This document shows, piece after piece, positions 366 to 2,074 of a stretch of DNA of 16,601 bases. Source of the DNA: Thermoprotei archaeon (lineage in GTDB: Archaea; Thermoproteota; Thermoprotei; Thermoproteales; B15-G16); contig QMRC01000019.1 of NCBI GenBank assembly GCA_003649205.1, positions 1 through 16,601 on the forward strand. The letters are read 5' to 3'. Both the position numbers and the translations under genes were made by a program. The notes under the pieces are model-generated. The model had not been told where the DNA came from and ran no database searches. It saw nothing but the letters and a program-made list of their open reading frames with translations. The stretch's first letter is position 1. Each line of letters opens with the position of its first letter.

Positions 366-414
366 TCAGCAAGCCGAGACTCCTCATCAATCAGTGGTAC
401 AACCGGTTCATCAC
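366..414 (-). ncRNA. C/D-box 2'-O-methylation guide sRNA (second of a tandem pair)
   Basis: Minus strand reads GTGATGA (C, 414-408), ACCGGTTGTACCA (13-nt guide), CTGA (D', 394-391), T, TGATGA (C', 389-384), GGAGTCTCGGCTTG (14-nt guide), CTGA (D, 369-366). Box order and spacing match archaeal C/D sRNAs. Confidence 0.88.
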
Positions 415-439
415 AGAGCACCTAGTAGGTAGCTAGACA

Positions 440-488
440 TCAGTAAACCATAGGTTCATCACGCATCAGAGCGACCGAAAATCATCAC
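440..488 (-). ncRNA. C/D-box 2'-O-methylation guide sRNA (first of a tandem pair)
   Basis: Minus strand reads GTGATGA (C, 488-482), TTTTCGGTCGCT (12-nt guide), CTGA (D', 469-466), TGC, GTGATGA (C', 462-456), ACCTATGGTTTA (12-nt guide), CTGA (D, 443-440). All four boxes are perfect consensus and the spacers are the canonical 12 nt. Confidence 0.92.
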
Positions 489-533
489 ATAGATATCTGA
501 AGTTCTGATATCTGAGATGTGGAGGTAGGGATT

Positions 534-612
534 TGGTGCGGCGGCCGGGATTTGAACCCGGGCTCACTGGCTCGGGGGGCCAGCATCCTAGTCCAGGCTA
601 GACGACCGCCGC
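534..612 (-). tRNA. tRNA-Gly(CCC), intronless, CCA encoded
   Basis: Reverse complement: GCGGCGG TC GTCTAGCCTGGACTAGGAT G CTGGC CCCCCGA GCCAG TGAGC CCGGG TTCAAAT CCCGG CCGCCGC A CCA. It forms a full cloverleaf with anticodon CCC and discriminator A. Confidence 0.96.
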
Positions 613-642
613 AATACCCCTCATCTCTAATTCCTTTGGGAC

Positions 643-649
643 TTATTAA
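643..649 (-). promoter_or_regulatory. TATA box of the tRNA-Gly gene
   Basis: TTAATAA on the minus strand about 30 nt upstream of the mature tRNA 5' end. Confidence 0.6.
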
Positions 650-739: not shown

Positions 740-2074
740 ATGTACGTATGTACTACATTTGAGAGGTTTCTCGTTGATAAGGTTGTTGATAGGGTAAGGT
801 ATGGAGTTGTATTTTCACTGAGAGATTTCGATTTCAGTAATGTTTCTGAGCTATATGTTCCTGGGAGGAGGAATGTCGGTGTCTATGTTCATGTTCCTTT
901 TTGTCGTTCTATCTGTCCATACTGTCCATACTATAAGGTTGTAGTGAGTGAGTCTAGTATTCGTTCTTGGTTGAGAGGTATTGTTAAGGAGATTGAGTTA
1001 GTTAGTAAAGTACTTCATGAGTTTGGTGTTGATGTTGTAATTGAGTGGGTGTACTTTGGTGGTGGTACTCCAAGTCTCTTACCTATTGATGTGCTGAGTG
1101 AGGTTCTTGAGGTTTTGCGTAGTTCGTTCAATGTTGTTGGTGAGGTCGGTATTGAGGCTAATCCTCTCGATCTTTCTCTGGATAAGGTCTCGAAATTGCT
1201 TGAACTCGGAATTACGAAGCTTAGTATCGGTGTTCAGTCCTTTCAAGATAAGTACCTCAGGATTTTGGGAAGAATTGAAGCTGGTAGAGCTAGTGAAGTA
1301 GCTAAGATACTTCGTGAAGTGATTGAGGAAACTGATGTTCACGTAAATGTTGACCTCATGTTTGCTCTTCCAACACAGACAACTGATGACTTCATCACTG
1401 ACGTTATGATGGTTATCGATCTCGGTATTCCTCAGGTAACAACATATCCACTCATATTGGTGAGAGGACTTAGACTGAGGAAGCTAATTGAGGAAGGAGT
1501 TTTACCAAAAGTTCCTGACCTAGGTACGGAGTTAGCTATGTTGAAGAGAGCTAGAGATATCCTCGAGGAGCATGGTTACAGAATGTGTACCATCTGGTCC
1601 TGGACTAAGGTGAGAAAATTCTACGAAACTGTTAGCAATGAGATGGAGGGTGATTACCTCGGATTCGGTCCTGGAGCATTTAGTTTAATTCGTGAATTTG
1701 AGCATCTAAACATACCATCCATCGAGAAGTGGTATCAAGCAGTAACTAGTGGTAGATTCCTGAAGTACGTCAGCTACGTAGATAAGGAGAAGCTACTCTG
1801 GCGTGCATTTGGCAATCAGCTCTATACGGGAACTGTGGATCTGAATTACTTGAGAAGTAGGTATTACGAGCTGAAGAAGACATTGAACAGAGTAGAGAAA
1901 ATTACTAAGGTACTCGCTCTACTCAAGTACTTGAAGAAATCAGGTACCACCTATAAATTAACTTGGAGAGGTCACAGGTTAGCTCACATATTCACTAAGG
2001 TATTCGTTGAGAAAGTACCATGTGAAATAACTATACAAGCTATGCAGCAGAGACACGAACTAGTACTTAGGTAG
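740..2074 (+). CDS. HemN-like (coproporphyrinogen III oxidase family) radical SAM protein
   Basis: Motifs YVHVPFCRSICPYCPY (CxxxCxxC), YFGGGTPS, IEANP, LSIGVQSF, VNVDLMFALP and YLGFGPGA are characteristic of the HemN/HemW family. Confidence 0.9.
   Translation: MYVCTTFERFLVDKVVDRVRYGVVFSLRDFDFSNVSELYVPGRRNVGVYVHVPFCRSICPYCPYYKVVVSESSIRSWLRGIVKEIELVSKVLHEFGVDVVIEWVYFGGGTPSLLPIDVLSEVLEVLRSSFNVVGEVGIEANPLDLSLDKVSKLLELGITKLSIGVQSFQDKYLRILGRIEAGRASEVAKILREVIEETDVHVNVDLMFALPTQTTDDFITDVMMVIDLGIPQVTTYPLILVRGLRLRKLIEEGVLPKVPDLGTELAMLKRARDILEEHGYRMCTIWSWTKVRKFYETVSNEMEGDYLGFGPGAFSLIREFEHLNIPSIEKWYQAVTSGRFLKYVSYVDKEKLLWRAFGNQLYTGTVDLNYLRSRYYELKKTLNRVEKITKVLALLKYLKKSGTTYKLTWRGHRLAHIFTKVFVEKVPCEITIQAMQQRHELVLR

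Follow-up and report, generated by a model that had tools for sequence, protein, structure and literature searches.

The window analysed here is a stretch of 16,601 nucleotides (nt) at the start of contig QMRC01000019.1 (C19) in the Thermoprotei archaeon assembly GCA_003649205.1, a genome of 2.07 Mb in 31 contigs that we designate G000. On its minus strand, a gene for transfer RNA (tRNA) Gly(CCC) is followed by two small RNAs (sRNAs) of the C/D box type, named here sR1 and sR2. We propose, with moderate confidence, that the three form one transcription unit, which would be expressed from the TATA-like element at 650-643. The same locus is carried by a sister species (G001; 93% identity over 381 nt), and the tRNA-sRNA linkage is retained both there and on a metagenome contig (L049). 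A preliminary description of the region had placed the sRNAs at 366-414 and 440-488, with gaps of 45 and 25 nt and a TATA at 649-643 (TTAATAA), within the TATA-like element; all of these coordinates proved correct on rechecking. It had also proposed that one tRNA promoter drives a three-RNA precursor. The shared promoter turns out to be the best-supported reading, although it is one that we infer from the DNA and its conservation.

All features of the locus are on the minus strand and are listed from high to low coordinates.

650-643, minus strand: TATA-like element TTAATAAG, presumed unit promoter, located 31-38 nt ahead of the tRNA 5′ end
612-534, minus strand: tRNA-Gly(CCC), predicted by ARAGORN, including the genomically encoded CCA (536-534)
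533-489, minus strand: spacer 1, 45 nt, a pyrimidine-rich tRNA trailer followed by a hairpin of 7 base pairs (bp)
488-440, minus strand: sR1, C/D box sRNA of 49 nt (C box through D box) with two 12-nt guides
sR1 boxes, minus strand: C GTGATGA 488-482; D′ CTGA 469-466; C′ GTGATGA 462-456; D CTGA 443-440
sR1 guides, minus strand: D′ guide, 12 nt, 481-470; D guide, 12 nt, 455-444; D′-C′ linker of 3 nt
439-415, minus strand: spacer 2, 25 nt, containing a small hairpin at 434-417
414-366, minus strand: sR2, C/D box sRNA of 49 nt with one 13-nt and one 14-nt guide
sR2 boxes, minus strand: C GTGATGA 414-408; D′ CTGA 394-391; C′ TTGATGA 390-384; D CTGA 369-366
sR2 guides, minus strand: D′ guide, 13 nt, 407-395; D guide, 14 nt, 383-370; no D′-C′ linker

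Rfam RF00005 places the tRNA at 612-537 with 52.7 bits (gathering score 29), and this is the sole Gly(CCC) gene found by ARAGORN in the G000 genome.

Two complete C/D box sRNAs behind tRNA-Gly(CCC)

Both sRNAs carry exact terminal boxes, GTGATGA and CTGA, as expected from the RUGAUGA and CUGA consensus. Both are symmetric double guides with internal D′ and C′ boxes, and their length of 49 nt agrees with the usual size of about 50 nt. The guides of sR1 have the expected length of about 12 nt; sR2 deviates through its longer guides and the missing linker, a layout that recurs in another strict match of the genome (C5:19795). A strict C-D′-C′-D pattern has 23 matches in the 2.07-Mb genome, sR1 and sR2 included, versus none in each of three genomes simulated with a first-order Markov model, which exceeds chance expectation. 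Allowing two box mismatches and merging overlapping matches raised the number to 170, versus 3, 6 and 1 in the controls, and 159 unique sequences are left once the copies on contig C3 are dropped. The commonest candidate size is 49 nt (70 of the 170 relaxed-scan matches).

At a permissive threshold, an Rfam search matched C/D box families alone over sR1 and sR2, but every score stayed below gathering; the best was snoPyro_CD with 26.4 bits versus 45 (E 0.0023). These C/D families are guide- and lineage-specific, so that sub-threshold scores say little. No bulge-helix-bulge motif is apparent in the folds around the sRNAs. The genome encodes fibrillarin (345.7 bits), Nop5 (245.3 bits) and RNase Z (TIGR02651, 321.4 bits with a cut-off of 292.95, C1:56621-57532). 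Moreover, the guides are nearly unchanged in G001 and L049 while the spacers diverge, and on this comparison sR1 and sR2 look functional.

The candidate set has some features of its own. With about 159 unique C/D candidates in about 2 Mb, versus 1-6 in the simulated genomes, G000 exceeds the expectation from six Pyrobaculum genomes. In Pyrobaculum, 110 C/D sRNA families are described over six species (PMC6009581). Contig C3 (291,428 bases) is the exact reverse complement of itself, centred on tRNA-His; this palindrome is an assembly fold-back artefact, which doubles the genes of the contig and inflates counts. Three convergent pairs of candidates on opposite strands abut D box to D box (C2:43182-43280, C2:283912-284010 and C5:57492-57592), CTGA being followed by TCAG with zero bases between.

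One promoter or several

The TATA-like element and the tRNA are both invariant, with 0 changes over 8 positions for the former and 0 over 79 for the latter in G001 and L049. The flanks of the element differ among these sequences at 15 of 89 columns (739-651) and 6 of 30 (642-613). Upstream, the neighbouring radical SAM gene is divergent, being on the plus strand, and the tRNA promoter is thus the sole upstream source of transcription on the strand of the sRNAs.

To score putative promoters, we used a matrix for the transcription factor B recognition element (BRE) and TATA box, trained in a constrained form on 43 tRNA upstream regions, the tRNA-Gly under test being left out, and percentiles are given relative to 20,000 random sites. 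The matrix recovers an archaeal motif of the AAA(C/G)-TTTAAA type 36-46 nt before tRNA 5′ ends. Unconstrained training yielded an A-rich motif alone and was set aside, and a TATA-only matrix holds too little information. No BRE/TATA-like element was found with the matrix before sR1 (best score −2.3, 30th percentile, in G000; 23rd percentile in G001 and 69th in L049) or before sR2 (−4.7, 11th percentile, in G000; 11th in G001 and 9th in L049). In agreement with the earlier statement, neither spacer shows an evident promoter or a T-run. Spacer 2, of 25 nt, is also too short for a promoter outside sR1. A scan of the region for bacterial-type promoters and terminators gave no match, such models not being applicable to archaea.

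Other sRNA pairs of the genome can be compared. In four unique same-strand pairs with gaps of 9-34 nt, no strong promoter-like element precedes the second members, whose scores range from −3.2 to 3.4 and do not exceed the 87th percentile; of the first members, three lie at the 94.6th percentile or above and one at the 86th. Two sRNA pairs with gaps of 45-48 nt hold a clear BRE/TATA in the gap (scores of 7.1 and 6.7, above the 97th percentile), and three sRNA-to-tRNA pairs in G000 likewise show one there by eye. The 45-nt gap of the present locus holds none, and this contrast speaks for a shared promoter.

The alternative that survives best, which we regard as possible but unlikely, is that the tRNA and the sRNAs are separate units. 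Here sR1, with or without sR2, would be expressed from a weak or non-canonical promoter in spacer 1 or in the 3′ end of the tRNA, and tRNA transcription would stop in the trailer. Against it, in the three sequences no correctly spaced A/T-rich octamer precedes either C box. The distance of AGATATCA from the C box, 18-25 nt, is too small for an archaeal TATA, and no more than 25 nt are available ahead of sR2. Moreover, spacer 1 of L049 diverges at 14 of 45 positions with no TATA-like word gained or kept, while the hairpin pairing described below is kept.

Several points nevertheless weigh against a single promoter or in favour of separate units. The matrix gives the tRNA's own TTAATAAG a score of −1.2 (42nd percentile; with TATA only, 4.75 and the 91.5th percentile of background), and since it misses the tRNA promoter, it might also overlook one in spacer 1 that is weak or unusual. 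With the TATA-only matrix, CCAAATCC before sR1 reaches the 88.7th percentile, though it is not TATA-like in look. As many as 122 of the 159 C/D candidates of G000 are without a recognisable promoter; 37 (23%) exceed the 95th background percentile, and a TATA or promoter of their own is attributed to about 20% of archaeal C/D sRNA genes in the literature (PMC7994747). The missing promoter, on which the preliminary description relied, is therefore a weaker argument than claimed. Among relatives, an sRNA lies 27-56 nt behind a tRNA in 10 of 62 genomes of the order, G000 and G001 included (0 in a reversed-pattern control), and several of these spacers show an evident TATA by eye, for example CCTTTTAAACC and GCTTAAATTC in the four genomes of genus g5. 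This observation can be read both ways: it fits separate units, but it also sets off spacer 1, which has no such TATA, in favour of a shared promoter. Similarly, sR44 and tRNAMet of Pyrobaculum have distinct promoters in two species (PMC6009581).

Termination is no better guide. TTTTT is absent within 400 nt downstream of tRNA-Gly(CCC), and the first TTTT after the tRNA lies inside the D′ guide of sR1. However, within 50 nt after the 50 predicted tRNAs of the genome, TTTT occurs in 9 cases and TTTTT in 2; with so few T-runs, their absence, which had also been put forward for a common transcript, is uninformative. Signals of termination behind G000 tRNAs are thus unrecognisable, and a stop right after the tRNA is possible. 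The trailer of tRNA-Gly (AATCCCTACCTCC...) resembles those of many G000 tRNAs that have no sRNA behind them, and it may hold the usual, unrecognised terminator.

Most tRNA genes of G000 have an encoded CCA and then a pyrimidine-rich trailer of the AAYCC type, not a T-run. A near-identical trailer of about 55 nt, starting with TCATTTACTCATT, stands behind tRNA Met, Leu-AAG and Asp (C1:29037, C4:26305 and C12:49913), and may be a repeated element or represent integration-site remnants. Two further tRNA-sRNA candidates were rejected. Behind tRNA-Leu(TAA), a C box at 26 nt (C1:256817) has the wrong D-box spacing and was not counted; the sRNA 70 nt behind a tRNA-Met (C1:29038 to 28967) is separated from it by two TTTT runs, which make co-transcription doubtful.

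Hairpins in the spacers

The spacers themselves offer a further argument for read-through. In spacer 1, a hairpin with arms 513-507 and 497-491 ends 2 nt before the C box of sR1, and the spacer folds with −6.3 kcal/mol (z −2.3), a value reached by 5 of 200 shuffles. The hairpin of spacer 2 likewise stops 2 nt short of the sR2 C box; its fold, at −5.5 kcal/mol, is no better than shuffles (42 of 200). In the alignment of the three sequences, the 14 pairs of both hairpins are all kept (42 of 42 cells). L049 shows one double-sided pair change (U-A to C-G) and four single-sided changes to G-U. All 7 pairs of its spacer 1 are preserved through one compensatory and two wobble changes despite the divergence of this segment, and the two in-stem changes in spacer 2 both still pair as U-G. 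G-U pairs exist just in the RNA of the minus strand, so that the spacers look selected as RNA; hairpin pairing thus argues that they are transcribed.

This argument has its own weak points. The probability that all pairs are kept under random transitions is about 0.05, the shuffle control for the hairpins is not significant (188 of 500), the covariation comes from one divergent sequence, L049, and the sequence that supplied the structure is itself part of the alignment.

One may go further and regard the hairpins as signals dedicated to processing or insulation in polycistronic sRNA precursors, the unit itself being a recent assembly of two older guides. The hairpins would then mark the site at which the spacer is cut, or stop neighbouring guides from mispairing, and two older guide RNAs would have moved behind the tRNA and gained new D guides. 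We give this idea a low probability. Upstream hairpins are not a general trait of G000 sRNAs, as a fold of −6 kcal/mol or lower precedes 6.9% of the 159 candidates versus 9.2% of random sites. In a post-hoc set, for which the second members of the four tandem pairs and sR1 behind its tRNA are named, a hairpin of −5.5 kcal/mol or lower precedes 4 of 6 downstream promoterless sRNAs versus 12.7% of random sites, a count that fits the idea. If true, such signals would contradict the published view that flanks are irrelevant to the maturation of C/D sRNAs. The conserved pair of hairpins before the C boxes is the sole element of the locus that might be new.

Extent and processing of the transcript

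Beyond sR2 and upstream of the tRNA, the neighbouring features, which include two genes taken from the open reading frame (ORF) table, are as follows.

365-277, minus strand: invariant stretch, 89 nt, non-coding, including TTATAAG at 307-301
276-1, minus strand: nucleotidyltransferase gene, ATG at 276-274, running off the contig; Pfam NTP_transf_2, 42.1 bits; ORF table
740-2074, plus strand: radical SAM gene, divergent; Pfam Radical_SAM, 72.8 bits; ORF table

Transcription from the tRNA promoter could also extend into the nucleotidyltransferase gene, or the sRNAs could act as a roadblock that lowers read-through into it. Both variants seem improbable to us; they are compatible with the tRNA-sRNA unit proposed here and not opposed to it. 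The lack of TTTTT behind the tRNA and the constancy, in the three sequences, of the 89 nt from sR2 to the ATG would fit such a longer transcript. Most archaeal C/D sRNAs are cut from longer transcripts shared with neighbouring genes, and an sRNA set upstream of a gene reduced the transcription of that gene (PMC7994747). On the other side, the downstream gene has its own TTATAAG, centred about 28 nt from the ATG as is typical of leaderless mRNA, and this motif is likely its promoter.

The 365-277 stretch shows 0 differing columns of 89 in all three pairwise comparisons of G000, G001 and L049, although nearby non-coding DNA differs by 10-30%. Its 365-309 part shows neither a significant fold (z −0.05) nor a C/D layout, and Rfam gives nothing of note there. 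The possibility that it holds a third C/D sRNA, in degenerate form, was rejected on these grounds, the box arrangement being unacceptable by eye. On the plus strand, TTTATAAAG at 706-714, strong and near-palindromic, stands 26 nt ahead of the radical SAM ATG (740) and is probably the leaderless promoter of that gene. Right next to this position, G001 and L049 have a 7-nt deletion.

That sR1 and sR2 stay fused as one four-guide RNA of about 125 nt is hardly credible: the spacer is merely 25 nt long, we know of no cleavage signal in it and two co-transcribed sRNA genes overlap by 4 nt in one Pyrobaculum species (PMC6009581), but each half is complete and of the standard 49-nt size, homologues recognised by their D′ guides occur in genus g8 as single genes without linkage (at a distance of 193 kb in G022, for example), and box motifs alone direct maturation (PMC7994747).

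For the unit driven by the tRNA promoter, the observed anatomy, its conservation and the fibrillarin, Nop5 and RNase Z genes are the ground from which we infer a single promoter, read-through and each processing step. A single precursor would contain tRNA-Gly(CCC), the 45-nt spacer, sR1, the 25-nt spacer and sR2. RNase P and RNase Z would free the tRNA, while L7Ae, Nop5 and fibrillarin would gather on the boxes of both sRNAs. The 25-nt spacer would then be cut by an endonuclease and the ends trimmed back by exonucleases as far as the protein-covered boxes, leaving two guide RNAs, each of about 50-55 nt. Since spacer 1 is structured and 45 nt long, RNase Z alone cannot make the 5′ end of sR1, and a second nuclease step would be needed. 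To our knowledge, no enzyme for such a step has been described in archaea.

Conservation and origin of the unit

Relative to G000, G001 differs at 5 of 45 positions in spacer 1 and at 1 of 25 in spacer 2, with identical sR1 and sR2. L049 matches G001 exactly in both flanks but has a diverged patch between 533 and about 390, with 22 differing columns within 144 nt (533-390; L049:430-1010 aligned to L002 of G001). Between these two, differences amount to 14/45 in spacer 1, 4/49 in sR1, 3/25 in spacer 2 and 1/49 in sR2. The patch looks like a short segment, imported or fast-evolving, over spacer 1 and sR1. In sR1 the changes affect the linker (464 and 463), the C′ box (458) and the guide base beside the D box (444); the single change in sR2 is at 390, the first base of C′. 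None of these five changes hits a guide core.

At larger distance the linkage disappears. Near downstream of tRNA-Gly(CCC), a same-strand sRNA candidate was found at 0 of 11 loci in two other families, the nearest one standing at 1,418 nt. Synteny, which the preliminary description had proposed to check, thus holds in G001 and L049 but not in these families, and judged from the genomes compared the tRNA-sRNA linkage is genus-specific. For the idea of a single unit, this makes the evolutionary support shallow.

The guides have a longer history. Exact-match searches over the 62 genomes of the order found the D′ guide of sR1 in 7 of them (genera g7 and g8; G000 and G001 excluded from this count) and that of sR2 in 6 of the 7 genomes of genus g8. 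The recurrent D′ guides sit in complete C/D sRNAs with a different D guide, at unlinked loci that lack an upstream tRNA; a tRNA-Phe stands downstream of two of the sR1 homologues. The D guides of sR1 and sR2 occur in G000 and G001 alone. Both D′ guides thus extend to another family of the order and predate the genus.

Predicted targets

Neither small- nor large-subunit ribosomal RNA (rRNA) was found in the G000 or G001 assemblies, and targets were therefore sought in the 16S and 23S rRNA of four genomes from other families. In all four relatives, the 23S rRNA at 236-247 (245-256 in G004) pairs with each of the 12 positions of the sR1 D′ guide (10 Watson-Crick and 2 G-U, 0 mismatches); 4, 6 and 9 of 300 shuffled guides do as well. 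The D′ guide of sR2 pairs over 11 of 12 positions with 23S rRNA around 2003-2019 in G003 and G013 (11 Watson-Crick and one box-adjacent mismatch; 10 of 300 shuffles as good), and its predicted target base differs in G002 and G004. By the established rule, modification falls on the nucleotide opposite the guide base in fifth place upstream of the box. The D′ guides thus point to two candidate 23S sites, an A near 240 and an A near 2007-2012 in the numbering of the relatives. For the D guides, no rRNA site of the relatives is better than shuffles (19 to 277 of 300), and no convincing site was found in the tRNAs of G000 or elsewhere in its genome. Each sRNA would guide 2′-O-methylation, the D′ guides being aimed at these two 23S positions.

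Relation to known systems and significance

In plants, too, a glycine tRNA and a C/D guide RNA downstream of it share one promoter: dicistronic tRNAGly-small nucleolar RNA (snoRNA) genes processed by RNase Z were reportedly described by Kruszka et al. in 2003. The plant genes differ in being transcribed by RNA polymerase III from promoters internal to the tRNA, and no homology of the arrangement is implied.

Closer counterparts exist among archaea. Nanoarchaeum equitans has a dicistronic tRNAVal-sRNA8 in which RNase Z makes the 5′ end of the sRNA, and its tRNAGly(CCC) and tRNAGly(TCC) adjoin two further sRNAs (Randau, PMC3491384). The locus described here shares with it a tRNA upstream of a same-strand C/D sRNA without an evident promoter of its own, RNase Z as the proposed start of maturation and Gly(CCC) tRNA among the partners. 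In N. equitans, the sRNA follows the tRNA directly, RNase Z makes its 5′ end and RNA sequencing supports the case, whereas our unit has a 45-nt hairpin spacer and a second sRNA and is known from sequence alone.

In Pyrobaculum, sR44 is co-transcribed with tRNAMet, sR101 and sR21 form a dicistron that perhaps also includes sR100, and the linkage of sRNAs is fluid among species (Lui et al. 2018, PMC6009581). Like the present case, these are tRNA-sRNA and sRNA-sRNA units whose lineage-specific linkage shifts between close species. The Pyrobaculum cases are distinct and link two genes each, the spacers ranging from −4 to about 100 nt, whereas here both kinds occur in one unit. Fusions of tRNASer-sRNA in Ignicoccus hospitalis and tRNAPro-sRNA in Thermoproteus tenax, and others in N. 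equitans, are reviewed together with archaeal clusters of two or three sRNA genes (PMC7994747, on Tripp et al. 2017). These belong to the same polycistronic class, with other tRNA partners, and the 20% of sRNA genes given there as having their own TATA is close to the 23% in G000. According to the same review, maturation is directed by the boxes and not by the flanks.

The novelty implied by the preliminary description, which named Nanoarchaeum among archaea, was thus overstated, as dicistrons are known beyond that genus, in I. hospitalis, T. tenax and Pyrobaculum, and sRNA clusters are known as well (PMC7994747, PMC6009581, PMC3491384). The principle of the arrangement is already published; the locus combines tRNA-sRNA and sRNA-sRNA linkages in one unit and contributes an example whose spacer is long and structured. 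In the literature passages surveyed, a tRNA and two sRNAs in one unit with a long structured spacer were not seen, which is no claim that such a unit is absent from print.

The locus opens no new field. In the comparison with relatives, guide RNAs turn up in another genomic context with one of their two guides replaced and the second retained, which fits the reported plasticity of these genes. If one promoter does serve the tRNA and both sRNAs, the unit would illustrate in compact form how guide RNAs are expressed in archaea through attachment to other genes, and the supply of guides for rRNA methylation would be tied to the transcription of a tRNA.

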